Assembly (NCBI RefSeq): GCF_002113885.1
Contig: NW_018407955.1
Coordinates: forward strand, 833,649-897,648
Reading direction: 5' to 3'
Source: Mizuhopecten yessoensis
Taxonomy: Eukaryota
DNA length: 64,000 nt
Shown piece after piece: positions 3,880 to 64,000 of the stretch. The notes below the pieces were generated by a model, which was not told the DNA's origin, searched no databases, and saw only the letters and a list, made by a program, of their open reading frames with translations. Each line of letters begins with the position of its first letter. The stretch's first letter is position 1. The translations under genes were made by a program, and so were the position numbers.

Positions 3880-4091
3880 TTCAAAGGAACTAGATCAGGT
3901 TTCAAACCCTGGACTGCAAATTGTTGTGCTGATGCTTTAACCAACTGAGCTGCCTGGTTAACATAAGTGCTCTGATCTTATTGTGCTACAGTTATATCGA
4001 AAATGAAATTAAGTAGAGGTTTCTCTATATCAGAAAAAAACGGAATGGAATCTCTAGTGTTTCGCCTGCAGTGGCATGAAGATCCTTAATG
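3880..4091 (-). mobile_element. Partial copy of the same TIR/tRNA-like element: the tRNA-like module plus one terminus (GCAGTGGCATGAAGATCCTTAA at 4069-4091). It abuts the 30-bp minisatellite.
   Basis: Sequence similarity to 300-480 (…CCAACTGAGCTGCCTGG…CTACAGTTATATCGAAAATGAAATTAAG…). Confidence 0.6.
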
Positions 4092-4127
4092 TGACTGGCT
4101 CTGGTACATAATGTCAATGGTAGAAAC

Positions 4128-6063
4128 TGATGTATTGTTAGCTGTATGGTTTGACCCTGATGTATTGTTAGCTGTATGATTTGACCCTGATGTATTGTTA
4201 GCTGAATGATCTGACCCTGATGTATTGTTAGCTGTATGATCTGACCCTGATGTATTGTTAGCTGTATGATTTGACCCTGATGTATTGTTAGCTGAATGAT
4301 CTGACCCTGATGTATTGTTAGCTGTATGATTTGACCCTGATGTATTGTTAGCTGTATGATTTGACCCTGATGTATTGTTAGCTGTATGATTTGACCCTGA
4401 TGTATTGTTAGCTGTATGATTTGACCCTGATGTATTGTTAGCTGTATGATTTGACCCTGATGTATTGTTAGCTGTATGATTTGACCCTGATGTATTGTTA
4501 GCTGTATGATTTGACCCTGATGTATTGTTAGCTGTATGATTTGACCCTGATGTATTGTTAGCTGTATGATTTGACCCTGATGTATTGTTAGCTGTATGAT
4601 CTGACCCTGATGTATTGTTAGCTGTATGATTTGACCCTGATGTATTGTTAGCTGTATGATTTGACCCTGATGTATTGTTAGCTGTATGATTTGACCCTGA
4701 TGTATTGTTAGCTGTATGATTTGACCCTGATGTATTGTTAGCTGTATGATTTGACCCTGATGTATTGTTAGCTGTATGATTTGACCCTGATGTATTGTTA
4801 GCTGTATGATTTGACCCTGATGTATTGTTAGCTGTATGATTTGACCCTGATGTATTGTTAGCTGTATGATTTGACCCTGATGTATTGTTAGCTGTATGAT
4901 TTGACCCTGATGTATTGTTAGCTGTATGATTTGACCCTGATGTATTGTTAGCTGTATGATTTGACCCTGATGTATTGTTAGCTGTATGATTTGACCCTGA
5001 TGTATTGTTAGCTGTATGATTTGACCCTGATGTATTGTTAGCTGTATGATTTGACCCTGATGTATTGTTAGCTGTATGATTTGACCCTGATGTATTGTTA
5101 GCTGTATGATTTGACCCTGATGTATTGTTAGCTGTATGATCTGACCCTGATGTATTGTTAGCTGTATGATTTGACCCTGATGTATTGTTAGCTGTATGAT
5201 TTGACCCTGATGTATTGTTAGCTGTATGATCTGACCCTGATGTATTGTTAGCTGTATGATTTGACCCTGATGTATTGTTAGCTGTATGATTTGACCCTGA
5301 TGTATTGTTAGCTGTATGATCTGACCCTGATGTATTGTTAGCTGTATGATCTGACCCTGATGTATTGTTAGCTGTATGATTTGACCCTGATGTATTGTTA
5401 GCTGTATGATTTGACCCTGATGTATTGTTAGCTGTATGATTTGACCCTGATGTATTGTTAGCTGTATGATTTGACCCTGATGTATTGTTAGCTGTATGAT
5501 TTGACCCTGATGTATTGTTAGCTGTATGATCTGACCCTGATGTATTGTTAGCTGTATGATCTGACCCTGATGTATTGTTAGCTGTATGATCTGACCCTGA
5601 TGTATTGTTAGCTGTATGATTTGACCCTGATGTATTGTTAGCTGTATGATCTGACCCTGATGTGTTGTTAGCTGTATGATCTGACCCTGATGTATTGTTA
5701 GCTGTATGATCTGACCTTGATGTATTGTAAGCTGTATGATTTGACCCTGATGTATTGTTAGCTGTATGATCTGACCCTGATGTGTTGTTAGCTGTATGAT
5801 CTGACCCTGATGTGTTGTTAGCTGTATGATCTGACCTTGATGTATTGTAAGCTGTATGATTTGACCCTGATGTGTTGTTGTTAGCTGTATGATCTGACCC
5901 TGATGTGTTGTTAGCTGTATGATCTGACCTTGATGTATTGTAAGCTGTATGATTTGACCCTGATGTGTTGTTAGCTGTATCTTTGACCCTGATAAATTGT
6001 TAGCTGTATGATTTGACCCTGATGTATTGTTAGCTGTATTATTTGACCCTGATGTGTTGTTCA
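4128..6063. repeat. Minisatellite with a 30-bp unit GCTGTATGATTTGACCCTGATGTATTGTTA, about 64 copies. T/C and A/G variants occur at two positions, and the distal end is degenerate.
   Basis: Direct reading of the sequence. It produces the artefactual 690-aa minus-strand ORF 4025-6097 ((TIHQGQIIQL)n). Confidence 0.97.
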
Positions 6064-6779
6064 TTTTCTGATATGCCGTGATGCTGATATAAGGCACGTG
6101 TGAGGAAGATTAAGAGACTCTGGAGAGACAATCATGTATGCTCCATTATCTGTCTACTTAGTCATGGCCAATCCTGCACTGTAAGTCCCCGGTAATCAAT
6201 ACAATATCTACTTTGTCTCGGCTGTATGCTGCAAAATGTCCACACTTTGTTTGAACATTATAATGTAAACCGCAAACAACTCTCACCACATAACAACACG
6301 TTATATATATACATATATACATCTTTGTCACAGAAAACAGGTCAAAGGTCAGATACATAAAATTGAAAAAACATAAAAATACATGTAAAAATAGCAGCGG
6401 ATGAGATGCCATTATCATTATCATGCTCTTAGAGATTTTTTGAAGACCAACTGTTTTTTGAATCACTGTTTAGCTCACTTAATGTTCTCTACATTATTGC
6501 GTGCAGTTGTTTTCGGTGTTTGGTAGTTTTTTATTCACTGCCAACGTAGAAATTTTATAGACGGCTTCAATCACTGTCGAGTGCAGTCAAACTAAATGGT
6601 TTTATACACTGTAACACTACAAGGTGAAATTACACCATGATGTTCCATTCATGCAAGCCTGTATCGTCCTGGCACAGGACTACTTCATCAGATTCCTGAC
6701 AGAACTTTTAACAGATGGTTCTTTAAATAATCTTGAACCCTGTTTGTACTGTCAGATCTACTCATTCAGCCCTCTAATG

Positions 6780-12855: not shown

Positions 12856-13213
12856 TTTCACTCCTTAATATATTAGTCATACCTGTCCATACCACTTTTG
12901 ACGCAATCAGGGCTTATAGATTGGCGATTCCTGTCCTTCCGTCTGTCTGTCTGTCTGTCTGTCCGTCTGTCTATCTGTCCGTCTGTCTGCGCTAAGGTTA
13001 AGAAGAATGGTTTAGCTCAGTTTCAAAGTTAACTATTATCCCACAACAACTAAACTTGCATGGCTTATGTATCTAACTAAGCTATTCATATGCGATGCTT
13101 CGGATGCAGCTTCTGACCTACATTTTCCGCTTCAGTGACCAGGTTATTAAGAAGTTTGGTTGAGGTCAGGCCCCATCTGCACTATGGTTAAGAAGATTGG
13201 TTTAGGTCACTAA
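12856..13213. repeat. Left copy of a ~358-bp direct repeat (TCACTCCTTAATATATTAG...GGTTTAGGTCACTAACCAG), about 96% identical to 16976-17317. Together the two copies flank the 45-bp satellite.
   Basis: Long blocks of sequence identical to 16976-17317 (e.g. CCACTTTTGACGCAATCAGGGCTTATAGATTGGCGATTCCTGTCCTTCCGTC... and GGCCCCATCTGCACTATGGTTAAGAAGATTGGTTTAGGTCACTAACCAG). Confidence 0.85.
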
Positions 13214-16200
13214 CCAGTTGTATTTGGTGTCCTTTCTACTGTCAACCATGACTTTGTCTTAGTTGTATATGGTATCCTATCTACTGTCAACCATAACTTT
13301 GTCTTAGTTGTATATGGTATCCTATCTATTGTCAACCATGACTTTGTCTTAGTTGTATATGGTGTCCTATCTACTGTCAACCATGACTTTGTCTGAGTTG
13401 TATATGGTATCCTATCTACTGTCAACCATGACTTTGTCTTAGTTGTATATGGTGTCCTATCTATTGTCAACCATAACTTTGTCTGAGTTGTATTTGGTAT
13501 CATATCTATTGTCAACGATGACTTTGTCTGAGTTGTATATGGTATCCTATCTACTGTCAACCATGACTTTGTCTTAGTTGTATTTGGTGTCCTCCATAAC
13601 TTTGTCTTAGTTGTATATGGTTTCCTATCTACTGTCAACCATAACTTTGTCTGAGTTGTATTTGGTGTCCTATCTATTGTCAACCATAACTTTGTCTTAG
13701 TTGTATATGGTTTCCTATCTACTGTCAACCATGACTTTGTCTGAGTTGTATTTGGTATCATATCTATTGTCAACCATGACTTTGTCTGAGTTGTATATGG
13801 TATCCTATCTACTGTCAACCATGACTTTGTCTTAGTTGTATTTGGTGTCCTATCTACTGTCAACCATGACTTTGTCTTAGTTGTATTTGGTGTCCTATCT
13901 ACTGTCAACCATGACTTTGTCTTAGTTGTATTTGGTGTCCTATCTACTGTCAACCATGACTTTGTCTTAGTTGTATTTGGTGTCCTATCTACTGTCAACC
14001 ATGACTTTGTCTTAGTTGTATTTGGTGTCCTATCTACTGTCAACCATGACTTTGTCTTAGTTGTATTTGGTGTCCTATCTACTGTCAACCATGACTTTGT
14101 CTTAGTTGTATTTGGTGTCCTATCTACTGTCAACCATGACTTTGTCTTAGTTGTATTTGGTGTCCTATCTACTGTCAACCATGACTTTGTCTTAGTTGTA
14201 TTTGGTGTCCTATCTACTGTCAACCATGACTTTGTCTTAGTTGTATTTGGTGTCCTATCTACTGTCAACCATGACTTTGTCTTAGTTGTATTTGGTGTCC
14301 TATCTACTGTCAACCATGACTTTGTCTTAGTTGTATTTGGTGTCCTATCTACTGTCAACCATGACTTTGTCTTAGTTGTATTTGGTGTCCTATCTACTGT
14401 CAACCATGACTTTGTCTTAGTTGTATTTGGTGTCCTATCTACTGTCAACCATGACTTTGTCTTAGTTGTATTTGGTGTCCTATCTACTGTCAACCATGAC
14501 TTTGTCTTAGTTGTATTTGGTGTCCTATCTACTGTCAACCATGACTTTGTCTTAGTTGTATTTGGTGTCCTATCTACTGTCAACCATGACTTTGTCTTAG
14601 TTGTATTTGGTGTCCTATCTACTGTCAACCATGACTTTGTCTTAGTTGTATTTGGTGTCCTATCTACTGTCAACCATGACTTTGTCTTAGTTGTATTTGG
14701 TGTCCTATCTACTGTCAACCATGACTTTGTCTTAGTTGTATTTGGTGTCCTATCTACTGTCAACCATGACTTTGTCTTAGTTGTATTTGGTGTCCTATCT
14801 ACTGTCAACCATGACTTTGTCTTAGTTGTATTTGGTGTCCTATCTACTGTCAACCATGACTTTGTCTTAGTTGTATTTGGTGTCCTATCTACTGTCAACC
14901 ATGACTTTGTCTTAGTTGTATTTGGTGTCCTATCTACTGTCAACCATGACTTTGTCTTAGTTGTATTTGGTGTCCTATCTACTGTCAACCATGACTTTGT
15001 CTTAGTTGTATTTGGTGTCCTATCTACTGTCAACCATGACTTTGTCTTAGTTGTATTTGGTGTCCTATCTACTGTCAACCATGACTTTGTCTTAGTTGTA
15101 TTTGGTGTCCTATCTACTGTCAACCATGACTTTGTCTTAGTTGTATTTGGTGTCCTATCTACTGTCAACCATGACTTTGTCTTAGTTGTATTTGGTGTCC
15201 TATCTACTGTCAACCATGACTTTGTCTTAGTTGTATTTGGTGTCCTATCTACTGTCAACCATGACTTTGTCTTAGTTGTATTTGGTGTCCTATCTACTGT
15301 CAACCATGACTTTGTCTTAGTTGTATTTGGTGTCCTATCTACTGTCAACCATGACTTTGTCTTAGTTGTATTTGGTGTCCTATCTACTGTCAACCATGAC
15401 TTTGTCTTAGTTGTATTTGGTGTCCTATCTACTGTCAACCATGACTTTGTCTTAGTTGTATTTGGTGTCCTATCTACTGTCAACCATGACTTTGTCTTAG
15501 TTGTATTTGGTGTCCTATCTACTGTCAACCATGACTTTGTCTTAGTTGTATTTGGTGTCCTATCTACTGTCAACCATGACTTTGTCTTAGTTGTATTTGG
15601 TGTCCTATCTACTGTCAACCATGACTTTGTCTTAGTTGTATTTGGTGTCCTATCTACTGTCAACCATGACTTTGTCTTAGTTGTATTTGGTGTCCTATCT
15701 ACTGTCAACCATGACTTTGTCTTAGTTGTATTTGGTGTCCTATCTACTGTCAACCATGACTTTGTCTTAGTTGTATTTGGTGTCCTATCTACTGTCAACC
15801 ATGACTTTGTCTTAGTTGTATTTGGTGTCCTATCTACTGTCAACCATGACTTTGTCTTAGTTGTATTTGGTGTCCTATCTACTGTCAACCATGACTTTGT
15901 CTTAGTTGTATTTGGTGTCCTATCTACTGTCAACCATGACTTTGTCTTAGTTGTATTTGGTGTCCTATCTACTGTCAACCATGACTTTGTCTGAGTTGTA
16001 TATGGTATCCTATCTACTGTCAACCATATCTTTGTATTAGTTGTATTTGGTGTCCTATCTACTGTCAACCATGACTTTGTCTGCGTTGTATTTGGTGTCC
16101 TATCTACTATCTACCATAACTTGTTCTTAGTTGTATTTGGTGTCCTATATACTGTCAACCATAACTTTGTCTTAGTCGTATATGGTATCCTATCTACTGT

Positions 16201-16350
16201 CAACCAAGACTTTGTCTGAGTTGTATTTGGAGTCCTATCTACTGTCAACCATAACTTTTTCTTAGTTGTATTTGGTGTCCTATCTACTGTCTACCATAAC
16301 TTGTTCTTAGTTGTATTTGGTGTCCTATCCACCCTCAACCATAACTTTGA
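13214..16350. repeat. Minisatellite with a 45-bp unit CAACCATGACTTTGTCTTAGTTGTATTTGGTGTCCTATCTACTGT, about 69 copies. The central roughly 50 copies are near-identical and the flanks are more diverged.
   Basis: Read directly. 45 bp equals 15 codons, which yields the artefactual 952-aa ORF 13210-16068 ((WLTVDRTPNTTKTKS)n). Confidence 0.97.
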
Positions 16351-30821: not shown

Positions 30822-32158
30822 TGTTCAGGGTCACAAGGGTCAGGTATTTGGTTGTGTAAGGTTCACAAGGGTCAGGTATTTGGTTGTGTAGGGTTCACAA
30901 GGGTCAGACATTTGGTTTTGTAGGGTTCACAAGTGTCAGACATTTGGTTGTGTAGGCTTCCCAAGGTTAGATATTTGGCCCGGTAGTTTGACAGGGTCAG
31001 GGATTTAGTTGTGAAGAGTTCAAATAGGTTAGATATTTGGCTATGTAGGTTTACAGGGTCAGACATTTGGTTGTGTAAGGTCCACAAGGGTCAGGTATTT
31101 GGTTGTGTAGGGTTCACAAGGTTAGATATTTGGCTCTGTAGGTTTACAGGGTCAGACATTTGGTTGTGAAGGGTGCATATAGGTTAGATATTTGGCTCTG
31201 TAGGTACACAAGGGTCAGATATTTGATTGTGCAGGGTTCACAAGGGTCAGGTATTTGCTTGTGTAGGGTTCACAAGGGTTAGCTATTTGGTAGTGAAGGG
31301 TATGCAAGGTCAGATATTTGGTAGTGTAGGGTTCACATGGGTCAGACATTTGGTTGTGTAGAGTTCACAAGGGTCAGACATTTGGTTGTGTAGGGTTCAC
31401 AAGGGTCAGACATTTGGTTGTGTAAGGTTCACAGGGTTAGATATTTGGCTCTGTAGGTTGACAGGGTCAGATATTTAGTTGTGAAGAGTTCAAATAGGTT
31501 AGATATTTGGTTTTGTAGGGTTCACAAGGGTCAGACATTTGGTTGTATAGGGTTCACAAGGGTTAGACATTTGGTTGTGTAGGGTTCACATGGGTCAGAC
31601 ATTTGGTTGTGTAAGGTTCACAAGGTTAGATATTTGGCTCTGTAGGTTGACAGAGTCAGATATTTGGTTGTGAAGAGTTCAAATAGGTTAGATATTTGGC
31701 TCTGTAGGGTTCACAAGGGTAAGATATTTGCTTGTGTAGGGTTCACAAGGGTTAGATATTTGGTTGCGAAGGGTTCACAAGGGTCAGATTTTTGGCTCTG
31801 TAGGGTTGACAAGGGTAAGATATTGGGTTGTGTAGGGTTCATAGGGGTCAGATATTTGCTTGTGTAGGGTTCTCAATGGTAAGATATTTGCTTGCATAGG
31901 ATTCAGAAGGGTTAGATATTGGGGTTTAAGGGTTCATAAGAGTCAGCTATTGGGTTGTGCTAAGGGTTCATAAGGGTCAGATATTTGCTTGTGAAGGGTT
32001 CACAAGAGTCAGATATTTGGTTGTGTAGGGTTCACAAGGGTAAAATATTGGGTTGTATAGGGTTAATAAGAGTCAGCTATTGGGTTGTGCTAAGGGTTCA
32101 TAAGGGTCAGATATTTGCTTGTGTAGGGTCTACAAGAGTCAGCCATTCGGTTGTGAAA
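30822..32158. repeat. Minisatellite with a 32-33 bp unit GGGTTCACAAGGGTCAGACATTTGGTTGTGTA, about 40 copies with many point variants.
   Basis: Read directly. Explains ORFs 30872-31087, 31664-31867 and 31985-32179. Confidence 0.95.
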
Positions 32159-33514: not shown

Positions 33515-35822
33515 ATGTGCTATAGTGCTAACTTTCCTCTACTATTTAATACTATAGTGCTAACTTTCCTCTACTATTTAATACTATAGAGCTAACCTTC
33601 CTCTACTATTTAATACTATAGAGCTAAACTTCCTCTACTATTTAATATTGTAAAGCTTACCTTCCTCTACTATTTGATACTATAGAGCTAAACTTCCTCT
33701 ACTATTTAATACCATAAAGCTAACCTTCCTCTACTATTTCATACTATAGAGCTAAACTTCCTCTACTATTTAGTACTGTAGAGCTAACCTTCCTCTTCTA
33801 TTTAATACTATAGAGCTAACCTTCCCCTACTATTTAGTACTGTAGAGCTAACCTTCCTTTACTATTTAATACTATAGGGCTAACTTTCCTCTACTATTTA
33901 AGGTTGTAGAGCTAACCTTCCTCTACTATTTTAATAATATGGTGCTAACCTCCCTCCACTATTTAGTACTGTAGAGCTAACCTTCCTTTACTATTTAATA
34001 CTGTAAAGCTTACATTCCTCTACTATTTAATACTATAAAGTTACCTTCCTCTACTATTTAATACTGTAAAGCTTACCTTCCTCTACTATTTGATACTGTA
34101 GCGCTAACATTCCTAAAGAGTACTGTAGAACTTCCCTTCCTCTACTATTTAATATCATACAGCTAACCTTCTGCTACTATTTAATACTGTAGGGCTAACC
34201 TTCATTTACTATTAAATACTATAGAGCTAACCTTCCTCTTCTATTTAATACTAAAGAGCTAACCTTCCTCTTCTATTTTAATACTATGGTGTTAACCTTC
34301 CTCTACTATTTAGTACTGTAGAGCAAACCTCCCTCTACTATTTAATATTATATATCTTATATGCCTCTTTTATTGCAATACCGTAGAGCTAACTTTCCTC
34401 TACTATTTAATACTATAGTGCTAACTTTCCTCTACTATTTAATACTATAGTGCTAACTTTCCTCTACTATTTAATACTATAGAGCTAACCTTCCTCTACT
34501 ATTTAATACTGTAAAGCTTCCCTTCCTTTACTATTTAATACTGTAAAGCTTACATTCCTCTACTATTTAATACTGTAAAGCTTACCTTCCTCTACTATTT
34601 GATACTGTAGCGCTAACATTCCTAAAGAGTACTGTAGAACTTCCCTTCCTCTACTATTTAATATCATACAGCTAACCTTCTGCTACTATTTAATACTGTA
34701 GGGCTAACCTTCATTTACTATTAAATACTATAGAGCTAACCTTCCTCTTCTATTTTAATACTATGGTGTTAACCTTCCTCTACTATTTAGTACTGTAGAG
34801 CTAACATTCCTCTACTATTTAGTACTGTAGAGCAAACCTCCCTCTACTATTTAATATTATATATCTTATATGCCTCTTTTATTTCAATACCGTAGAGCTA
34901 ACTTTCCTCTACTATTTAATACTATAGTGCTAACTTTCCTCTACTATTTAATACTATAGAGCTAACCTTCCTCTACTACTTAATACCATACAGCTAACTT
35001 TCCTCTACTTTTTAATACCATAGCGCTAACCTTCCTCTACTACTTAATACCATAGAGCTAACCTTCCTCTACTATTTAGTACTGTAGAGCTAACCTCCCT
35101 CTACTATTTAATATTATATATCTTATATGCCTCTTTTATTGCAATACCGTAGAGCTAACTTTCCTCTACTATTTAATACTATAGAGCTAACCTTCCTCTG
35201 GTATTTTAATACTATGGTGCTAACCTTCCTCTACTATTTAGTACTGTAGAGCAAACCTTCCTCTACTATTTAGTACTGTAGAGCAAACCTTCCTCTACTA
35301 TTTAGTACTGTAGAGCTCCCCTCCCTCTACTATGCTATAGTGCTAACTTTCCTCTACTATTTAATACTATAGAGCTAACCTTCCTCTACTACTTAATACC
35401 ATAGAGCTAACCTTCCTCTACTATTTAGTACTGTAGAGCTAACATTCCTCTACTATTTAGTACTGTAGAGCAAACCTTCCTCTACTATTTAGTACTGTAG
35501 AGCTCCCCTCCCTCTACTATTTATTACTGTAGAGCTTACCTTCCTCTACTATTTTAATACTATGGTGCTAACCTCCCTCCACTATTCAGTATTGTAGAGC
35601 TAACCTCCCTCCACTATTCAGTATTGTAGAGCTAACCATCCTCCACTATTCAGTATTGTAGAGCTAACCATCCTCCACTATTCAGTATTGTAGAGCTAAC
35701 CTTCTTCCACTATTCACTATTGTAGAGCTAACCTTCCTTCACTATTCAGTATTGTAGAGCTAACCATCCTCCACTATTCAGTATTGTAGAGCTAACCATC
35801 CTCCTCTACTATCTAATACTAT
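33515..35822. repeat. Minisatellite with a 33-34 bp unit CTACTATTTAATACTATAGAGCTAACCTTCCT, about 68 copies. A higher-order periodicity is marked by ATATTATATATCTTATATGCCTCTTTTATTGCAATACCGTAGAGC recurring at about 34335, 34850 and 35105.
   Basis: Read directly. Blocks 34380-34860 and 34900-35160 repeat the same order of unit variants. Confidence 0.95.
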
Positions 35823-37521
35823 TTTTATAATCTGGACCTTGCCTTCTACTTTTTTTAACTGTGCTGTAGATTTAAACTTTTTCTTCTATTTAGTACAGTG
35901 CTGTGAGAGTAACTTTTTTGGTACTTAGTTTTGCTGTCCCGTGAGGCTGAACTGTCCTCACTATAAAGTGCTAAATTTTGCAACTAACATTTCACACAGT
36001 GTAGTACTATAACCCCCACAGCTTCTATCAATAGTTGATTTATGGATTCATGTTTACACAAAAAAATCAATGATTTTATGATTTTGATATAGATAAGCTC
36101 TGATATTAAATAGCAAATCTATACACTGGATGTAAGTGCTGAAATATATTTTCTGCAGAAATAAGTATGTTTATAGTATAAGTTCTGTGATTGACTGATG
36201 ATGATTCCATGCTGTCACCTTAAAGAAATGTTTCAAGAAATTCACCTTGAAGAAATTATTTTTCAAGAGGTTCTTCTAAGTATGCAAGCTACAGAGTGTA
36301 GTATGAATGGGCTCATTGGGAAGGATAAGGTCATTACCATTCTGTGCTGGAGTTACCTCCCATTTCCAGCCCGGTTTATGTACAGTAATGGGAGTCGCTA
36401 GATAATTATATCATATATAAACCTTCATCTCCTACGCTCTGATAGCTCAATCACAGGTACTGGTGTTTGTCTGTGTTTGTCTGGCAAACGTGATGATGAG
36501 TAATTGCGATTTAATGGCCACTTAAATTCCCTAGCACATGTTCATCAATCTATGTCTGTTTCAATTATGTTAAACTTCTTAAAAAAACATTTGATTAATA
36601 TATTCTCCACACAGAAACAATGGCCGACATTCATCTGTGTTAAGCCCAATTCCTGCTGTGAGGTTTTTATATTGTTGTGTTTATTGAGTCTTACATAAAT
36701 GAATTGAAGACGAGGGTCTTTGAGGAATCGTTGTCTTTCATGAAGTTGTGTATTTTGTGAAGCGATGCATCTTTTTAGGTCACCTGATCTCTGGTCATGG
36801 ATACCCATTACAATCTGTCTTTGTCCGTTCTCGTGGGTGATGCATTAACATTTTACATTTTTCGACTTCTTCTCAAAAACTGCTGGGCCAAATTTGATGT
36901 TACTTGGCACAAGTGATCAGCATGACATGGGGATTTAGATTTGTTCAAGTGGAGGGGCTAAGGGTCTTAGGAGACCCAATAGGGGCAAAAATAGAGAAAA
37001 AAATGTCTATTTTCAAGAACCAGAAGTGCGACAGATTTGCTAGCTGTTTTGCATGCATGTAGATTTAACTGTGTTCAAATCAAGTCCTTGGGGCCATAGA
37101 AGGGGCCACAATGCAGGCTTTTGATTGGTTGAAATTAAGATGTAGTTGGATTTTGTTGATAATTGTTATATGGGGTAATTGGGTATACTGAAATAAACGG
37201 TGAGTGTTTCGAAAATTTGTCTTTCCATGGTAACCGAGTGGTGGCCTCTGATTGGTCAAAATTTAGATATTATACAATATTTTGCTGAAAATTGGTATTT
37301 TTTTCCAGGTGACCGTTTATGCCTATGGACCTCTCATATTTAGCCATGTCTGGTTTGCAATTAGATGTCTTTAAGTCATGTGACTTGTATTAAAGGTTAC
37401 AGATCTTAGATAAATTCAGGTGTTTTATTAAGTCAGATGCCTTATAAGAAGTCATATGTCTTACATGAAAGCATGCATCTTGTATGAAGGTTCTCAATTA
37501 AGTCACATACAATATTCATCT

Positions 37522-37830
37522 CACATAAAGTAGTGTCTTACCTGATGCCGTGTGTCTTACATAAAATAGTGACTTACCTGATGCCATGTGTCTTACCTAA
37601 TGCCATGTGTCTTACATAAAATAGTGTCTTACCTGATGCCATGTGTCTTACATAAAATAGTGCATTACCTGACGCCATTTGTCTTACCTAATGCCATGTG
37701 TCTTACATAAAATAGTGCCTTACCTGATGCCATGTGTCTTACATAAAATAGTGTCATACCTGAAGCCATGTCTTACCTGAGCTATGTGTATTACATAAAA
37801 TAGTGTCTTGTCTGATGTCATGTGTCTTAT
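37522..37830. repeat. Tandem repeat of about 36-38 bp (GTCTTACCTGATGCCATGTGTCTTACATAAAATAGT), about 8 copies, ending some 130-170 bp upstream of the WS/DGAT exon.
   Basis: Read directly. Produces minus-strand ORF 37720-38136. Confidence 0.9.
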
Positions 37831-38003
37831 ATGAAGAAGTGATCTTAATTTAATCCATATGTCTAACATGAAATAGTGTCTTTTATAATTGAAGTCTTGT
37901 GTCTCTATGAAGTCATGTGTAATTGAAGCCAAGTGTTTAATGTTATGTTTTGTATATTGCAGATCGGGACAAAGATGACAGCCATCAACATGTAGACCAC
38001 CAG

Positions 38004-40406
38004 ATGGATGAGTATAGTAATGACAATCGCCATGGAAACAAAAGGAAGCCAGCCATCCACAAATCTTCAAAGTCTGGAGCGCACTCTCAGTCGAGTGGTG
38101 TCCATGGTAATAATAGTCGACGGTCATCTGAGCCACAGTTGGCCACCAGAGGGAGTGACATGTCTAGAGAAAGAAAGGATAAGGTCAAACCTTCGAACCA
38201 TTGTATACAAGATGGTCAAAATGGTGCAGCAGGCGAGGGAAGGGACAGAAACTCTGTCAGACAAAAGCTTGACTCAAGTGATGGATCCGACGATCAAGGC
38301 ATCGGCAACAGGAGAGATTCCGGCAGGAGTAACCGTGCAGAAAGATCTAAAAAGTATGCCACCTGGGACAAAAACATGCAGAAACGACGAGCCAAAGTGT
38401 TGCAGCTGCAACAGGAAGGGCAGACAAGTGCTGATGATACCTTCATCAACAAAAAGGGGAGGCAACTCCCTGACAACTATTACAAACTGTCACGGAGTAT
38501 CTCAACAGACCTGGCAACTTTGCGCAACAAGACTCAGATGCTGCAATCAGCTAGTGTTTACAACACAAGCGGGGATATGTCAGCGCCATATACCCAAATC
38601 TCAAAATCTTCTTCCCAGAGTCAAAAGACTTCAGTCAACAATCACTGGCAGGCATTTGACCAATCAAAACACAGTAACTTGTACAACTCGGCAGGGACAC
38701 AGAATAACTACAGTGAGAACATTCCTAAACAGCGGACCATGTCTCTCGGTGACGTACGACGGTCAGCTTTTTACCGCATCAACTCAAACACCCCTTCCAT
38801 TCCCTCCTCACCCTCCGATCACAAGGACACATACATTGACATAGACAGCCTCATAGCCAATGACATCCACGCCCATCAAGCGGAAGAGAATGAAAGGGCC
38901 TTCCCGACACTGGAAGGGTACAGACGTCACGGTTTGACACACAGCTTTCCCAGTGCACCCTACACAACACTAAAACATTTAAGTGAGAAAAGTATATGTT
39001 CCTCTTTGCTAGGATTAATGATGTTCCTTATAGCCGGCTTTGTGCTATTTCTACCTCTGGCAGCCATCTTTCTAATTCTATGCCCCTTGTGTTTCTTTGT
39101 GAAGAAAATATTTTCATGCTGTTGTTGCTATGGAAAAAAGTGTCAATGTGGAACTCTCCTATCTCCAAAGGAGAGAGCATGGGCAGAAAATTTGGAAACC
39201 AGCACCGTTGTGTACCAATGTGTTGTTATAGTGGAGTATGGTCTAACGACCTACAAAATACGGGAGTTGGTGAGAAATCGACTAATAAAGGCAACAGATA
39301 AAAATGGCAATAGATTATATCCAAAATTTACAAAGAAAATTGTGAATACTTTTTCTGGCCCATCTTGGATTCAGGATGAGGCTTTCCTAATAAACAACCA
39401 CGTTTTTAATATGCCTTCCTCCATAGAAAATATGGAGGACCTCCAGGAATATATATCAGAATCTAGCTCGAAACCTCTCTCTATGCACCATCCTCTGTGG
39501 GAAATCCAGGTTCTGACCGACTTTGCCGATCAGCGAGACACGGTTGTATTGTTGCGCATTCATCCATGTATCGCTGACGGAATCTCACTCGTACAACTTC
39601 TGTATAAGGCTATTGTGGATATGGAGTCCATCACCATCGCTATGCCAAAGTTCTCTAGTCGTCGGCGTTTCTGTAATGCCGTCCAGGCATTCTTCAGTGG
39701 CCCGTTGGTTTTTTTGAAACAGTACGTGTTCAAAAAGCAAGATTTTAATATGCTGCATGGCCAACACATCCACGCCACGGGCAAACAGGTGATAGCTTGG
39801 TCAGAGCCGTACAGCCTTGAGCAAGCCACACGTCTTTCTCAGGTGACGCGTTCCACTCTAAATGACATCTTCCTGTCTGTCACAGCAGGTTGTCTACGTA
39901 ATTATCTGCAGACGAATGGAATTCCGAATCCGTATGACATGCAGGCCCTGGTACCTGTACACTACCATTCGGGACCCTCACCCCTTCATCTGCAAAACAA
40001 CGACTGTCTGTTTATCCCCGTCTCTATTCCTTCAAACACAGAAGGTGCCATCCCTCGACTCTGGCGGGTCAAACACATCATGGACAAGATTGGTAGTCTG
40101 GCTTTTTTCTCGGTCACACAAGGGGCCCATATGTTGTCTTCGACGATCTTGCCCCAACGGTGGTTGTATTCCATGTGGCGATCCCTGTATAGTAAGTGTA
40201 CATTTGTCATTTCTGACCTTCCAGGGCCCGAGACAACCTTGAAAATAGCCACTAAAAAAATCAAGTCTGTAATATGCTGGATGCCACCAATCCACCAGGT
40301 TGCTGTGGCGATCTCCTTCTTTACCTATGCTGACCAGGTGAGGATGTCTGTGATGGCTGACCGGACAGTCTTGCCCAACCCTGAGATGTTGACCAGGGAT
40401 TTCATT
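38004..40406 (+). CDS. Large exon of a WS/DGAT-family acyltransferase gene (wax ester synthase / acyl-CoA:diacylglycerol acyltransferase-like, PF03007 plus PF06974/DUF1298-type core). N-terminal part is low-complexity, followed by one TM helix and a Cys cluster. The 5' boundary is uncertain: the first in-frame ATG is at 38004, and a possible splice acceptor (ttgtatattgcag) lies at 37962/37963.
   Basis: 829-codon open frame. Residues align to Acinetobacter AtfA hallmarks: PLW...IHPCIADG (the HHxxxDG position, 39561-39581), TLNDIFLSVTAGCLRNYL (AtfA TINDVVLAVCSGALRAYL), ISDLPGP (AtfA ISNVPGP, 40209-40229) and AISFFTYADQVRMSVMADRTVLP (AtfA ITMTSYLDKLEVGLIACRNALP). The exon ends exactly at a phase-0 GTAAGT donor (40407-40412), three codons before the ORF stop. 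Confidence 0.8.
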
Positions 40407-40976
40407 GCCATCGTAAGTATTTTGATTGTTTTGAAGTAAGTACTGCCCTTAGTGATACGATTTGGAAAATATTTTTTTCAATAATGATGCACGGTCATTG
40501 TACTTTTAATATGGGATTCTACTTAATTATTTTTACTTCATGTATCTTCACAAACCTATGTAATCTAATGATAAATGCATGCTTCTGTAATGTTAGTCAG
40601 ATAGCCTTGTAATCACAGATGTAATCACATAGCTCAACCAAAAATCCATTTTGGTTTGAACTCATCAATTGAGGGGACGACCCATTGATCAGTGAAAAAG
40701 TAACTGACAGGGGTCACTGATGAAATCAGTAAATTGAAACAAGCAGGACATGATATTTTGGCATGATTTCCGACTGTGGTCAAGGTCATGTATTAATGAC
40801 TTTTGACATTTCATAGCATCTTGTATGCGAGTTAGCGGTTGGAGGTCATTGGGGTATAATTGTATAGTCTTGTGACCAACACCCCTCCCCCACTCCTGCA
40901 TTTCTATTTATTTAGGGTTCTTGTCCCAGTTTTTCGAAGCCCAACTAGCTAAATCAGTCATAAACAAAAAATGTTT

Positions 40977-41068
40977 TAACTCATTCACCCCTGAAGACGC
41001 ATTTAAACTCTTCCAGTTCAAAGGTTGGAATAGTTCATTATGAAATTTCAGGGGTGAATAAGTTAAAT
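40977..41068. mobile_element. Palindromic MITE, the best-preserved copy (TTAACTCATTCACCCCTGAAGACGCATTTAAACTCTTCCAGTTCAAAGGTTGGAATAGTTCATTATGAAATTTCAGGGGTGAATAAGTTAA). It lies in the putative intron 1 of the WS/DGAT-like gene.
   Basis: 19-20 bp perfect inverted termini that include TTAA. Confidence 0.8.
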
Positions 41069-41837
41069 GATAAAAATCTCAGAATTTTTACTTCAACAGG
41101 GGAATTGCGGGATAATGTTCTGGTGAAAAATCCTTAATATGCCTTCCTCAATATATTGCCAAACCACTTTACAGTGATTTTATTTCTTTAATTTTACAGC
41201 GGTCTGTTCCTACACAAATAAGAAATTAGAGAAATATTTGTATTGAAACTGGGAACATATTTCTCATTTTTGATTAATTTTAGGAAAATAAAACATTTTC
41301 TAAGGGGAATCAGCCTGTTTTCAACTGTTTAACTAGGCTGGAAAGGTGGCGGCAGAATGATGAGGTTTCATTATTTTACTATCTCAGAAAATAGATATTC
41401 CTAGCATAAATAAAAAAACACTTACTAAGGGGAGTAACTCCTACTGAATGTAAATGTCGTCAGACATCATGTTTGATCCCCCCCCTTATACCTTATACCG
41501 GTATTATCAATTCATAATCAGGTTTTTTGGGGGGGGGATGTGTGGGGGGTTGATTGGCCTTTATAGGTATGTGGTATGTAGTTTGTTAAATTTGTTACAT
41601 AGGTTTCAAGCAGGTAATATGAGTTCATATTACCTGCCTATGACCTATATCACCAATATTATTGTTAGAAAAATATGAATTTTTGCCAACCCTTACATGT
41701 ACAACATGTGATGTCGGGTGAAAAGTCTTTAAACAACCAGCATAAAAGCACTCCCTGTTTACTCAATTTTTATCGAGATTTGTAAAACCGCTCTACAGAT
41801 TGTGAAGATAACACTGTGTGTACATTGTTGTCTCTAG

Positions 41838-41954
41838 ATGGATGACCTGTCCAGTTTACTGGGTAATCGAAGGATTCCCGGAGAACAACTCTCCAAAAAA
41901 ATGGAAGTGCACCAACTGGACTGTGAAATTCATGCTGAGCCCACTGTGGAACAG
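41838..41954 (+). CDS. Putative exon 2 of the WS/DGAT-like gene (39 codons, MDDLSSLLGNRRIPGEQLSKKMEVHQLDCEIHAEPTVEQ). Phase 0 at both ends.
   Basis: The pyrimidine-rich acceptor ttgttgtctctag ends at 41837 and is followed by the donor cag|gtaagtag at 41955. The frame is open and its phase matches the exon 1 donor. By the AtfA alignment it supplies the about 15 residues still missing from the C-terminus of the acyltransferase domain. The overlapping minus-strand ORF 41856-42083 is judged spurious. Confidence 0.55.
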
Positions 41955-42884: not shown

Positions 42885-43510
42885 GACTAAATTTGGTCTG
42901 GAGTATCCTTAGGTCAAGGGGACTCAATTTTGTATGAACGTGGGTGTTGCCCCCCTGGGAGCAGAGGGGTGGGGCCCAATAGGGGAAATAGAAGTAAAAC
43001 CTTTTAAATCCTTCTTCTACTGTAGGGGTTAAGAGATTTTATTCTAATTTAGTCTGGAGCATCCTTGGGCCAAGAGGACTCAATTTGGTATAAACAGTGG
43101 GTGTGCCCCCCTGGGAGCAGAGGGGTAGGGCCCAATAAGGGAAGTGGAGGTAAAACCTTTAAAATCCTTCTTCTTCTGTAGGGATTAAGAGATTTTATCC
43201 TAATTTAGTCTGGAGCATCCTTGGGCCAAAGGGACTCAATTTTATATAGACGGTGGATGTGGCCCCCCTTGGAGCATTGGGTGGGGCCCAATAGGGGAAA
43301 CAGAGGTAAAACCTTTAAAATCCTTCTTCTACTGTAGGGATTAAGAGATGTTATCCTAATTTAGTCTGGAGCATCCCTGTGCCAAGGGGACTCAATTTTG
43401 TATAAACAGTGGGTTTAACCCGTCTGGGAGCAGAGAGGCAGGCCCAATAAAGGATATAGAGGAATAGCTTTAATATCCTTCTTCTTTCGTTGGGATGAAG
43501 GTATTTTGAC
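42885..43510. repeat. Tandem repeat with a unit of about 150 bp, about 4 copies (…GGTCTGGAGCATCCTTGGGCCAAGGGGACTCAATTTTGTATAAACAGTGGGTGTGCCCCCCTGGGAGCAGAGGGGTGGGGCCCAATAGGGGAAATAGAGGTAAAACCTTTAAAATCCTTCTTCTACTGTAGGGATTAAGAGATTTTATCCTAATTTAGTCT). It lies inside the putative intron between exons 2 and 3.
   Basis: Read directly. The unit is homologous to the internal part of the AGCTCACCTG-terminated dispersed elements at 42786, 54375 and 36950. Confidence 0.9.
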
Positions 43511-44189
43511 CAAATTTAAACAATAGCATCCTATGGAGAAGGGAAATCAGTTTTTTATAATAATAGTATATAAAATTAATATAATAGTATTTTAGCATAA
43601 CTAGAAGGTGACTTGTTCCTATATACAGTAACCTCCCTTATGGAAATCAAACAAAGTTTAATTGATCTACAAATCGTGGTAATACTTGCGTAAGATTTTT
43701 TCAGATGAATTCATGGAACTAAGTGTGTGCTTAATATACCAATGTCCCTCTAGAGTAAAACTAGAAGGTGACTGTTATCCTATATACAATGAAAATCTGC
43801 CACACTACTCCCCCTTTTTAAATGTGTTCGCCCTTGAACACCATGACAACCCATGTTCTAACTCCCTGTCACCACTGGGAGGGCCACCGAGACACCATTA
43901 GTGACAGAGAAATGTACTTCCACCAGGGGATTGAACCAGTGACCCTCAGCTTCCTAGTCCGCCACTCTGTCAATTGAGCTAAGGGGGAAAATTCCCTCTA
44001 GCACAAAGCTAAAAGGTGACTGTAATCCTATGTACAATATGAAAATCTGCCACACACTGTTTGCTGGTACTAAACCCAGTGGCCTTTATATTCCACGATA
44101 GTGCAAGTGCATCTTGTGATTAGGTTTCAAACTAGGGGGAAACTGGACTCTTGTTAACAAAAACTATGTGAATATGTTTTTCAGCAATT

Positions 44190-45052: not shown

Positions 45053-45259
45053 ATCCAGATAAAGATGACCATCATACAGCAAGAAATACAGGAACTCAAG
45101 ATGCAGCTTGATCTCGATGGACGTCACACCAGCTCCGAGACGAAGCTCCGACGCAAGATAGAGACTTTGAAGGAACAGTTTCGGGAGATGATGGTTGAGA
45201 TGCGCCAGAGAAAGGCTGCTGAGGAGGAGAATGCCATGATTCTTACGGACGAGGATCCT
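45053..45259 (+). CDS. Putative exon 3 (69 codons): a charged, heptad-like coiled-coil segment (IQIKMTIIQQEIQELKMQLDLDGRHTSSETKLRRKIETLKEQFREMMVEMRQRKAAEEENAMILTDEDP).
   Basis: Acceptor tttcgcacgtcag|ATC and donor CCT|gtaatc, phase 0 on both sides. It coincides with six-frame ORF 45065-45289. Whether it belongs to the same transcript as exon 1 is unverified. Confidence 0.45.
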
Positions 45260-45284
45260 GTAATCATCTTATTATTGATAACTT

Positions 45285-46530
45285 TATAATCTGGAATTTT
45301 ATTAGTGACACCTTATTAATTGGACATCTCATAAGCAACAGCTGTATAATTTGATAACTCATTGATGATACCTGTATAATCTGACATCTCTACAATGGCA
45401 CCTGTATAATCTATCAATCTGATAACTCATTTATGATACCTGTGTAATCTGACATCTCTACAATGGCACCTGTATAATCTATCATCTTTTTAGTGACACC
45501 TGTTTAATACAACATATCAGTAATGACACCTGTATTATATGACATCTCATTAGTGACACCTGCATAATCTGACATCTCATTCATGATGCCTGTGTATTCT
45601 GACATCTCATTAGTGACACCTGTATAATATGACATCTCATTAGTGACACCTGAATAATATGACATCTCATTAGTGACACCTGCATAATCTGAAATTCCAT
45701 AGTTTCACTTGTATAATCTGACCTCTCATTATTGACACCTGTATAATCTGAAATTCTATAGTGACACCTGTTTAATCTGACATTTCATAAGTAACACCTG
45801 TATTCTCTGAATTCTCAGTAGTGACACCTGTTTTATGAAGTATCTCATTAATCAACCCTGTATAATCTGACAACTCATAAGTGACAACTCTTAAGTACAG
45901 CAACTCATTACTGATACCTGTATAATCTGACATCACATTGGTGACACCTGTATGATCTGATACCTGATAAGTGACACCTGTTAAGTCTTACATTTCATAT
46001 ATAACAACTGTTTATTCTGGCATTTCATAAATAACACCAGTATAATCTGAAATCTCATTAGTGACACCTGTATAATATTACATCTGATTTGTGAGACCTT
46101 TTCAATCTGACATTTTATTTGTGGCACCTGTATAATATGACTTCTCATTTGTGACACCTGTATGATATGACATTTCATTAGTGACATCTGTATAATATAA
46201 CATCTCATTTATGAGACCTTTTCAATCTGACATCTTATTTGTGATATCTGTATAATATGACATTTGATAAGTGACACCTGTTTAATTTGACATTGCATTT
46301 GTGGCACCTATTTAATCTGACATATCATTAGTGACACCTGTATAATCTGACATTTCATTAGTAACACCTAAATAATCTGACATATCATTAGTGACACCTG
46401 TATAATCTGACATTTCATTAGTAACACCTGTTTAATCTGACATCTCATTAGTGACACCTGTATTATTTGACAATAAATTAGAGACACTTGAATAATCCAA
46501 CATTTTATTAGCAAAACCTGTGTAATCTGT
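45285..46530. repeat. Minisatellite with a 30-bp unit GACACCTGTATAATCTGACATCTCATTAGT, about 40 diverged copies.
   Basis: Read directly. Explains minus-strand ORFs 45981-46208 and 46368-46709. Confidence 0.95.
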
Positions 46531-48470: not shown

Positions 48471-48620
48471 TTTCAGTCCTCCAGAATGGATGGTATCAGC
48501 ATAGGTATGGCCGGAGGTAGGCAGACGTTGCCACGACGAACACAACATAGGAACGAGGAATTTGAAATTCTTGAATATGCTCATTCACCTTCGATGGAGA
48601 GACGAATAAGGACAGCGTAG
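48471..48620 (+). CDS. Putative terminal exon (49 codons plus TAG stop): SSRMDGISIGMAGGRQTLPRRTQHRNEEFEILEYAHSPSMERRIRTA*
   Basis: Acceptor tattatataatttcag|TCC in phase 0 and an in-frame TAG at 48618-48620. No clear AATAAA signal was seen just downstream, so more 3' exons remain possible. Confidence 0.4.
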   Translation, partial: FQSSRMDGISIGMAGGRQTLPRRTQHRNEEFEILEYAHSPSMERRIRTA

Positions 48621-48639: not shown

Positions 48640-49400
48640 CAGAAGTTACCGATGAGTTACAGAAATTTGGAATACTTAACTGAAAGATGCAAAGACATGG
48701 GTAAATAACTTTTGTGATAAAGAAGTAAAAAAAACTTACCTGTGAGATATTGGGAATTATTACTTGTGAGATACAGAGATTGGGAATACTTACCTGAAAG
48801 ATATAGAGATGTGGAAATCTCATTTGTAAGATACAGAGATTGGGAATACTAATTACCTGAAGGATATAGAGATATGGTAATCTCACTTGTGTGATACAGA
48901 GATTGGGAATACTTACCTGAAAGATTTAGAGATGTGGAAATCTCATTTGTAAGATACAGAGATTGGGAATACTTACCTGAAGGATATAGAGATGTGGAAA
49001 TCTCATTTGTGAGATACAGAGATTGGGAATACTAATTACCTGAAGGATATAGAGATGTGGAAATCTCATTTGTGAGATAGAGATTGGTAATATTTACTTG
49101 TGAAATACAGAGATGAGAACATATTACCTGTGAAATTCAGAGACTTGGAGTACTTATCAGAAATATGAAGATTTGGAAAACTCATCTGTGAGATACAGAG
49201 ATATGGATTTCTAGTAAGATTAGACAGAGATTAGTATTGCTTATTAATGTGAGATGAGAGATTAGGAATGCTTGCTGTGAGATTAGGATTTCTTACTTTT
49301 GAGATTATTTAAACACTTAAAATACTCACCTGCGAAATCATAAATACTGACTTGAAAAACCCAGATTTGGAACATTTCTATGTGAAATACTGATATTCTG
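48640..49400. repeat. Tandem repeat with a unit of about 32 bp (GAGATACAGAGATTGGGAATACTTACCTGAAG) and a 64-bp higher-order alternation (…GATATAGAGATGTGGAAATCTCATTTGT…). It is clear from 48760 to 49110 and degenerate at both ends, and it starts about 20 bp after the putative terminal exon.
   Basis: Read directly. Explains minus-strand ORF 48581-48886. Confidence 0.9.
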
Positions 49401-62149: not shown

Positions 62150-64000
62150 TACTACCATAATATAACAATTGCAGTCTAAATACCAAGTACCCCACAATTG
62201 CAGCCTATATACTAACTGTTCCCTACAATCACAGCCTACTCCACAATCGCAGCCTACATCCTAAGTACCCCACAATCACAGACTACTCCACAATCGCAGC
62301 CTACATCCTAAGTACCCCACAATCACAGACTACTCCACAATCGCAGCCTACATCCTAAGTACCCCACAATCACAGACTACTCCACAATCGCAGCCTACAT
62401 CCTAAGTACCCCACAATCACAGCCTACATACTAAGTACCCCACAATCACAGCCTACTTACAAAGTTCCCCACAATCACAGCCTACATCTTTGATCCCCAC
62501 AATCGCAGCCTACATACTAACTGTTCCCCACAATTGCAGCGTACATACTAAGTTCCCCACGATCACAGCCTACATACAAAGAACCCCAAAATCACAGCCT
62601 ACTTACAAAGTACCCCACAAGCACAGCCTACTTACAAAGTTCCCCAAAATCACAGCCTATATACAAAGTACCCCAAAATCACAGCCTACATCTTTGATCC
62701 CCACAATCGCAGCCTACATACTAAGTTCCCAACAATCACAGCCTACATACTAAGCTCCCAACAATCACAGCCTACATACGACCCCACAATCGCAGCCTAC
62801 ATACTAACTGTTCCCCACAATTGAAGCGTACATACTAAGTTCCCCACAATCACAGCCTACATACTAAGTACCCCACAATCACAGCCTGCTTACTAAGTTC
62901 CCCACAATCGCAGCCTACATACTAAGTTCCCCACGATCACAGGGTACATACTAAGTACCCCACAATCGCAGGCTACATACTAAGTTCCCCACGATCACAG
63001 AGTACATACTAAGTACCCCACAATCACAGCCTGCTTACTAAGTTCCCCACAATCGCAGCCTCCATACTAAGTTCCCCACGATCACAGCCTACATACAAAG
63101 TACCCTACAATCCCACCCTACATACTAAGTTCCCCACAATTGCAGTCTACATACTAAGTACCAAACAATCACAGCCTACATACTAAGTACCCCACAATCA
63201 CAGCCTACTCCACAATCGCAGCCTACATACTAAGTACCCCACAATCGCAGCCTACATACTAAGTTCCCCACGATCACAGCGTACATACTAAGTACCCCAC
63301 AATCACAGCCTACTTACAAAGTTCCCCACAATCACAGCCTACATCTTTGATCCCCACGATCACAGCCTACATACAAAGTACCCTACAATCACATCCTACA
63401 TACTAAGTTCCCCACAATCACAGCCTACATACTAAGTTCCCAACGATCACAGCCTACGTACTAAGCTCCCCAAGATAACAGAGTACATACTAAGTACCCC
63501 ACAATCACAGCCTACAGACTAAGTACCCCACAATCACAGCCTACTTACTAAGTTCCCCACAATCACAGCCTACATACTAAGCTCCCCAAGAAAACAGCGT
63601 ACATACTAAGTACCCCACAATCACAGCCTACATACTAAGTTCCCCACAATCACAGCCTACATACTAAGTACCCAACTATCACAGCCTACATACTAAGTAC
63701 CCCACAATCACAGCCTACATACTAAGTTCCCCACGATCACAGCCTACATACTAACTGTTCCCCACAATTGCAGCCTACATACTAAGTTCCCAACGATCAC
63801 AGCCTACATACTAAGCTCCCCAAGATAACAGAGTACATACTAAGTACCCCACAATCACAGCCTACTTACAAAGTTCCCCACAATCACAGCCTACATACTA
63901 AGTTCCCCACAATCACAGCCTACATACTAAGTACCCAACAATCACAGCCTACATACTAAGTACCCCACAATCACAGCCTACATACTAAGTTCCCCACAAT
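62150..64000. repeat. Satellite with a 29-bp unit CCCCACAATCACAGCCTACATACTAAGTT, more than 60 copies, running off the 3' edge of the window.
   Basis: Read directly. Explains ORF 62490-62753. Confidence 0.97.

Follow-up and report, generated by a model that had tools for sequence, protein, structure and literature searches.

Wax ester synthase/diacylglycerol acyltransferase (WS/DGAT) enzymes are conventionally treated as proteins of bacteria, plants and protists, and the synthesis of wax esters and triacylglycerols in animals is conventionally attributed to the DGAT1, DGAT2 and AWAT families. The two WS/DGATs with solved structures, AtfA/AbWSD1 of Acinetobacter baylyi (7NXG) and Ma-WS/DGAT of Marinobacter (6CHJ), have a two-lobed fold covered by the Pfam domains PF03007 and PF06974. 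The same fold and the same two domains are found in the product of LOC110457585, a gene on the plus strand of a 64,000-nucleotide stretch of the genome of the scallop Mizuhopecten yessoensis (NCBI RefSeq assembly GCF_002113885.1, contig NW_018407955.1, positions 833,649 to 897,648; the window, from whose first letter all positions below are counted). It is near certain that this gene is a vertically inherited member of a WS/DGAT-like family that extends across the bilaterians, and the long form of the family to which it belongs lacks the histidine regarded as catalytic. Neither the locus nor its domain assignment is new, since the gene is already present in NCBI by automatic annotation, with relatives automatically named, for example, "putative diacylglycerol O-acyltransferase tgs1". 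No published description of animal WSD-type proteins, of the long-form clade or of its loss of the catalytic histidine was found in a literature coverage that is incomplete, and PMC5343412 does not cover animal WS/DGATs.

The assignment to the family rests on both sequence profiles and structure, and the regions concerned are as follows.

39159 to 40412, plus strand: WS/DGAT-like two-lobed core, residues 386-803 (Pfam, PDB sequence matches, AlphaFold2 and Foldseek)
39339 to 39611, plus strand: match to PF03007 (WS_DGAT_cat), residues 446-536, partial, covering profile positions 62-152 of 263 (Pfam)
40005 to 40412, plus strand: match to PF06974 (WS_DGAT_C), residues 668-803, running one codon into exon 2 by the Pfam coordinates (Pfam)

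A preliminary description of this DNA had reported the defining blocks of the WS/DGAT family in one large exon and proposed a comparison with the two Pfam profiles, both of which exceed their gathering cut-offs, PF06974 with 68 bits (E 9e-19, cut-off 20.7) and the partial match to PF03007 with 45 bits (E 1.5e-11, cut-off 23.6). The NCBIfam model TIGR02946, which was built for the annotation of bacteria and archaea, gives 164.5 bits, below its cut-off of 309.95. A sequence search of the PDB returns 6CHJ and 7NXG and no other entries. An AlphaFold2 model of residues 315-865, computed from an alignment of 33 sequences, has a mean predicted local distance difference test score (pLDDT) of 83.5 and a predicted template modeling score (pTM) of 0.82, and its best Foldseek matches in the PDB are again 6CHJ and 7NXG (E 3e-24 and 1e-21, target TM-score 0.73-0.74), with condensation domains of nonribosomal peptide synthetases next in rank. 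Because both Pfam domains pass and the model folds like 6CHJ and 7NXG, the assignment is confirmed: the exon encodes a WS/DGAT-fold protein, with the whole core included. The block that does not conform to the preliminary description is the active site, which reads HPCIADG and not HHxxxDG.

Identity to AtfA and Ma-WS/DGAT is 16-17%. The scallop protein shares with these enzymes PLW, ND, PGP and, within the active-site motif, the D-G pair, whereas it differs from them in having proline in place of the second histidine, a motif EGxxPRLW, about 385 additional N-terminal residues containing an anchor and a cysteine cluster, about 210 additional C-terminal residues containing a coiled coil, and a score under the TIGR02946 cut-off. 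The motifs within the core are located as follows.

39561 to 39581, plus strand: degenerate active-site motif HPCIADG, with the first histidine, aspartate and glycine retained and the catalytic second histidine replaced by proline
39861 to 39866, plus strand: ND motif within TLNDIF, retained in the scallop
40035 to 40064, plus strand: NTEGAIPRLW, a clade-specific signature
40212 to 40232, plus strand: SDLPGPE, a variant of the canonical SNxPGP with aspartate for asparagine

HMMER alignments pair the proline of HPCIADG with the second histidine of 6CHJ and 7NXG. This second histidine of HHxxxDG is regarded as the catalytic residue, and the Thraustochytrium enzymes TrWSD4 and TrWSD5, in which the first histidine is replaced, are still active (PMC5513132, PMC10549239). 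These two are likewise eukaryotic WS/DGATs with a degenerate HHxxxDG, one of them with a transmembrane segment (PMC5513132), and as they substitute the first histidine and keep the second, the scallop protein presents the opposite pattern. The second histidine is kept in about 3% of a clade of 73 long-form bilaterian sequences that includes the scallop protein, compared with 98% of 148 bacterial-like sequences and 100% of a 46-sequence canonical-animal group, which contains the canonical animal paralogs, many short canonical matches being assignable to neither animals nor bacteria. At the vacated position the clade has proline in 52% of sequences, glutamine in 27% and leucine, methionine, alanine, serine, glutamate or arginine in the remainder. 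There is no histidine anywhere in the motif of two bivalve sequences (RLSSCIMDG) and of one other clade member (RVSPCVTDG), and in Argonauta the DG has become DS (motif-degenerate relatives P0013, P0014, P0027 and P0012). These double losses and the Argonauta substitution may be read as more signs that the motif does not serve catalysis in the long-form lineage.

Of the other family motifs, PLWE and ND are present in the scallop and SNxPGP reads SDLPGP, and across the long-form clade the aspartate of ND is conserved in 75% of sequences versus 100% of canonical ones, and the asparagine of SNxPGP in 56% versus 96-100%. This relaxation of motifs that are otherwise invariant in the family is limited to the long-form clade. 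Conversely, the E, G, P, R, L and W of EGxxPRLW reach 90-99% conservation in the bilaterian clade but are for the most part missing in canonical WS/DGATs, and Arg616 is likewise fixed in the clade and rare or absent elsewhere. From these alignments we infer a loss of catalysis in the long-form lineage. The suggestion that the gene is a candidate neutral-lipid or wax-ester synthase is doubtful, because the catalytic second histidine is replaced in the scallop and absent across the bilaterian clade.

The protein could nevertheless be a still active wax-ester/triacylglycerol synthase or another O-acyltransferase that employs a non-canonical catalysis, for instance via the retained first histidine, substrate assistance or a clade-specific residue such as Glu680, and that would be anchored in the endoplasmic reticulum like plant WSD1. 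This alternative stays alive because the first histidine, aspartate and glycine are strongly conserved, and the scallop itself retains His520, Asp525 and Gly526 together with PLW, ND and PGP; the modeled fold is intact, and the core has been under strong purifying selection for more than 500 My. Plant WSD1-type proteins (Arabidopsis WSD1 and relatives) resemble the scallop gene in being eukaryotic, encoded by intron-containing genes and provided with predicted transmembrane segments, and plant WSD enzymes localize to the endoplasmic reticulum (PMC12062176). They differ in having the canonical motif and a demonstrated wax synthase activity; no plant sequences occur among the closest relatives of the scallop protein, and no direct comparison with them was made. 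An active enzyme is harder to reconcile with the absence of the residue regarded as the general base, with a position that tolerates chemically unrelated residues within the clade, with members devoid of any histidine in the motif, with the relaxation of further family motifs in the long-form clade alone and with a score far under the TIGR02946 cut-off. Overall, we regard continued acyltransferase activity as the main alternative, a real but somewhat doubtful possibility.

Several observations weigh against a loss of catalysis. In the long-form clade the first histidine is conserved in 96%, the aspartate in 99% and the glycine in 88% of sequences, a pattern that also fits a re-wired active site. 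Some members of the wider condensation-domain superfamily tolerate loss of the second histidine. The same histidine-to-proline change occurs in bacteria, in Blastococcus P0009, with the motif THPALVDG, and in Atf14 of Rhodococcus jostii RHA1, a WS/DGAT with an H-P motif (PMC2667194). Both bacterial proteins are of the soluble type and about 460 residues long, and since the tree places them at a great distance from the animal clade, the change is convergent.

A second animal form of the family keeps the canonical motif. Short paralogs with HHxxxDG are found in Nematostella, Owenia, Macrostomum, Lamellibrachia, Lingula and Oratosquilla (P0072, P0074, P0090, P0203, P0205 and P0233), the Nematostella protein (P0072) being XP_001632004, "putative diacylglycerol O-acyltransferase MT1809". 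They share the two domains with the long-form proteins and are the group nearest to the long-form clade in the tree; like that clade, they are uncharacterized. They differ from it in their length of about 480-600 residues, in keeping HHxxxDG (100%), ND and SNxPGP, and in having neither the cysteine cluster, nor EGxxPRLW, nor the long tails. Many invertebrates carry a gene family derived from WS/DGATs, one form of it canonical and the other long and devoid of the catalytic histidine, which raises the question of whether the canonical paralogs contribute to the wax-ester or triacylglycerol storage of marine invertebrates, and what role is played by a deeply conserved, apparently de-catalyzed and predicted membrane-anchored version.

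The additions that distinguish the long form lie on either side of the core, and those upstream of it are the following.

38004 to 38933, plus strand: low-complexity, poorly conserved N-terminal region, about residues 1-310, with little conservation outside scallops in the alignment
38946 to 38963, plus strand: FPSAPY motif, invariant in 8 of 8 aligned mollusc sequences
38988 to 39131, plus strand: 48-residue hydrophobic segment, residues 329-376, which has prolines in its middle and may serve as a membrane anchor or hairpin (Kyte-Doolittle scan)
39117 to 39149, plus strand: juxtamembrane cysteine cluster CCCCYGKKCQC, candidate S-acylation sites

AlphaFold2 renders the hydrophobic segment as a long helix. 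Of the 73 clade members, 65 have a comparable segment ahead of the core (median 46 residues), and the 30 residues after the anchor contain a median of five cysteines. A hydrophobic segment is also present in 35 of the 46 sequences of the canonical-animal group, there without the cysteine cluster, and in 5 of the 148 bacterial-like sequences. Downstream of the core, exon 2 encodes the conserved NRRIPGEQ linker and exon 3 a segment predicted to form a long helix or coiled coil; an acidic stretch, the RPFRRRTLS motif and a conserved tail at the C-terminus follow. From these features we infer anchoring to a membrane or lipid droplet, S-acylation and phosphoregulation of the scallop protein.

Taken together, the alignments and the model suggest a WS/DGAT-derived protein built of five parts, namely a disordered N-terminus, an anchor with its cysteine cluster, a two-lobed domain of WS/DGAT fold, a conserved linker and a tail in which a predicted coiled coil is combined with a basic Ser/Thr site. 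With the fold and the substrate-side motifs PLW, ND and PGP retained, the tunnel for lipid or acyl-CoA is probably kept, and with the second histidine lost and EGxxPRLW fixed instead, the lineage would have ceased early in bilaterian evolution to act as a canonical, histidine-base acyl-CoA:alcohol/diacylglycerol acyltransferase. Its present role would most likely be that of an acyl-lipid or acyl-CoA binding protein anchored at the endoplasmic reticulum or the lipid droplet, a pseudoenzyme-like regulator or scaffold under the control of its tail. That the scallop protein is a membrane-anchored, catalytically non-canonical and possibly inactive WS/DGAT derivative acting in neutral-lipid metabolism is a reading to which we give an even chance.

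The structure of the gene was reconstructed from an open frame of 829 codons on the plus strand (37950-40439) and from the annotated protein P0001, which is isoform X1 of LOC110457585, an "uncharacterized protein" of 1015 residues that is 100% identical to the frame in a database search. Its elements are the following.

37963 to 38003, plus strand: putative 5' leader of the large exon, following a polypyrimidine tract and an apparent AG acceptor at 37961-37962, predicted from the sequence
38004 to 40412, plus strand: coding exon 1, codons 1-803, with the disordered N-terminus, the membrane anchor and the entire WS/DGAT-like core (tblastn, exact splice reconstruction)
40413 to 41837, plus strand: intron 1, GTAAGT...AG, phase 0
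41838 to 41954, plus strand: exon 2, which holds the conserved NRRIPGEQ motif
45053 to 45259, plus strand: exon 3, a predicted helical or coiled-coil segment
47330 to 47500, plus strand: exon 4, an acidic stretch and then RPFRRRTLSVSS, a putative site for a basophilic-type kinase
48477 to 48620, plus strand: exon 5, the conserved FEILEYA...ERR tail and the TAG stop codon

The five spliced exons translate exactly to the 1015 residues of P0001 plus the stop codon, and all four introns are of phase 0 with GT-AG ends. Most of the exon boundaries proposed earlier agree with this reconstruction. The entire core does lie within one exon (38004-40412), a GTAAGT donor is present at its end (40413-40418) and the following exon does begin at 41838; the proposed exon end at 40406 falls 6 nt short, as the final DFIAI ends at 40412. 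Between the AG acceptor and the annotated start at 38004 there is a short upstream open reading frame of six codons (37975-37995, ATG...TAG, MTAINM*).

Orthologs with the long architecture are found among molluscs in Pecten, Argopecten, Saccostrea, Sinanodonta, Patella, Lottia, Babylonia and Argonauta, and among other spiralians in the nemertean Tubulanus, the annelid Owenia and the brachiopod Lingula. A HMMER profile search of 1.84 billion representative sequences gives 8541 matches, 541 of them below 1e-30, and the scores fall smoothly with no gap after the spiralians. Intermediate matches come from arthropods, including horseshoe crabs, a tick, crustaceans, a millipede, a springtail, a planthopper and a damselfly, as well as from a tardigrade, a rotifer, a flatworm and a starfish, such that orthologs occur in at least 10 animal phyla. 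In a neighbor-joining tree computed from 152 cores (407 columns, 100 bootstraps), the 73 long-form bilaterian sequences form a clade with a bootstrap of 79 (77 in a 267-sequence tree), neighbor joining being a simple distance method whose deep nodes are weakly supported here, which counts against our interpretation. Within the clade, scallops (bootstrap 100) are nested in pteriomorph bivalves (97), bivalves (90) and molluscs (83), and these in turn in a group with annelids and nemerteans and then with other bilaterians. The scallop sequence therefore sits inside an animal clade with the branching of the species tree and not, as a nested bacterial sequence would, within bacteria.

The intron positions are consistent with this branching. 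A giant first coding exon followed by four small exons, separated by homologous phase-0 introns, is common to the scallop, the limpet and the nemertean, the last of these being the sole source for intron conservation beyond molluscs, and the oyster shares at least the last two junctions, those reconstructed exactly there, with the scallop. The surroundings of the gene are less constant: the gene downstream of the ortholog encodes a TSNAXIP1_N domain in Saccostrea (L001 27219-32284) and belongs to glycoside hydrolase family 3 in Patella (L002 28339-32338), and no local synteny is evident around the Saccostrea, Patella and scallop orthologs, the 64-kb scallop window having no obvious neighboring gene. 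Since orthologs are broadly present with conserved intron positions, in the phylum and beyond, this is an ordinary vertical gene, the very outcome that the preliminary description had set against its own view of the gene as unusual for an animal genome. Its second suggestion, a rarely annotated metazoan WS/DGAT lineage, matches both the distribution and the tree.

Horizontal acquisition had been the leading idea, on the grounds that the family is best known from bacteria and that the core occupies a single exon richer in guanine and cytosine (GC) than its flanks. Exon 1 is indeed richer in GC than the introns of its own gene (0.46 versus 0.33-0.38), yet the four other exons, at 0.47-0.53, contrast equally with the introns, so that its composition reflects a normal difference between exons and introns and carries no foreign signature. 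That one GC-richer exon encodes a "bacterial-type" domain was thus no evidence for horizontal transfer, a point that calls for caution in scanning genomes. A recent transfer from bacteria into scallops or molluscs is also at odds with the occurrence of orthologs in at least 10 animal phyla, with a gene tree congruent with the species tree, with intron positions that the scallop shares with a gastropod and a nemertean and with best bacterial matches that are just 22-25% identical; we reject it as highly improbable. Exon 1 has an observed/expected CpG ratio of 0.60, as against 0.05-0.37 for the introns and 0.34 for the window as a whole, which is consistent with a germline methylation-driven depletion of CpG in non-coding DNA.

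Bacterial contamination or an assembly chimera, for which nothing speaks beyond the bacterial reputation of the family, is rejected with practically no doubt. The large exon is joined by canonical GT-AG splicing to four downstream exons whose tail is conserved in other molluscs, the locus is placed on a 1.37-Mb scaffold, and an equal structure is present in the independent assemblies of oyster, limpet and nemertean. The earlier statement that the exon is part of the host genome accordingly holds.

A transfer of much greater age is a separate matter. All animal WS/DGATs, both the canonical H-H paralogs and the long-form clade, could go back to a single, very old transfer from a bacterium to a eukaryote that took place before cnidarians and bilaterians separated and of which the intronless core exon would be a relic, and such an origin is compatible with either reading of function. 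Among named sequences from outside the animals, those nearest to the animal H-H paralogs come from bacteria, namely Gemmatimonadetes DUF1298 proteins (about 33% identity, 331 bits) and proteins of Xanthomonadales (about 30%), and the core is free of introns in scallop, oyster, limpet and nemertean, which intron loss could equally have produced. In the 267-sequence tree, the long-form clade, the group of canonical animal paralogs and a Gemmatimonadetes-containing group join successively, which places the animal groups beside the bacterial one; however, the bootstraps of these deep nodes are 3-38%, the sampling of WSDs included no plants or fungi and few protists, and a protist sequence (P0035) is placed within these groups too. 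That the animal WS/DGATs as a whole have such an old bacterial origin is thus possible, at clearly less than even odds. In its fullest form, the picture we would tentatively propose, with rather less than even confidence, is that of an unstudied conserved bilaterian pseudo-acyltransferase that has lost the catalytic histidine but keeps the tunnel, with the EGxxPRLW signature, a palmitoylatable anchor and a phosphoregulated tail, which would serve as a regulator or sensor of neutral lipids at the endoplasmic reticulum or lipid droplet and which, with its canonical paralogs, may derive from a bacterial gene that entered the animal stem lineage long ago.

The WS/DGAT-like gene is the sole convincing long coding feature noticed in the window. 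Two other long open reading frames on the minus strand, 4025-6097 (690 residues) and 13210-16068 (952 residues), coincide with tandem arrays of a 30-bp unit in 64 copies (4127-6061) and of a 45-bp unit in 70 copies (13216-16349), each 96% identical. As the repeat periods are divisible by three, these frames are probably by-products of the arrays, and they were dismissed as candidates for neighboring genes. Minisatellite arrays, which had been noted as flanking the exon, are present there and also fill the introns, being dense around and inside the gene (30827-32155, 33523-35820, 37519-37829, 42890-43560, 45265-46529, 48764-49202 and 62188-64000). One ends about 130 bp before the acceptor of exon 1, one starts right after the donor of exon 3 and one lies just past the stop codon. 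The terminal array (62188-64000), built of a 29-bp unit, shows a strong C skew and continues past the end of the window. Intron 1 contains a 93-bp hairpin (40975-41067) with 21-nt arms that are 95% complementary and 51 nt apart, which has the look of a miniature inverted-repeat transposable element.

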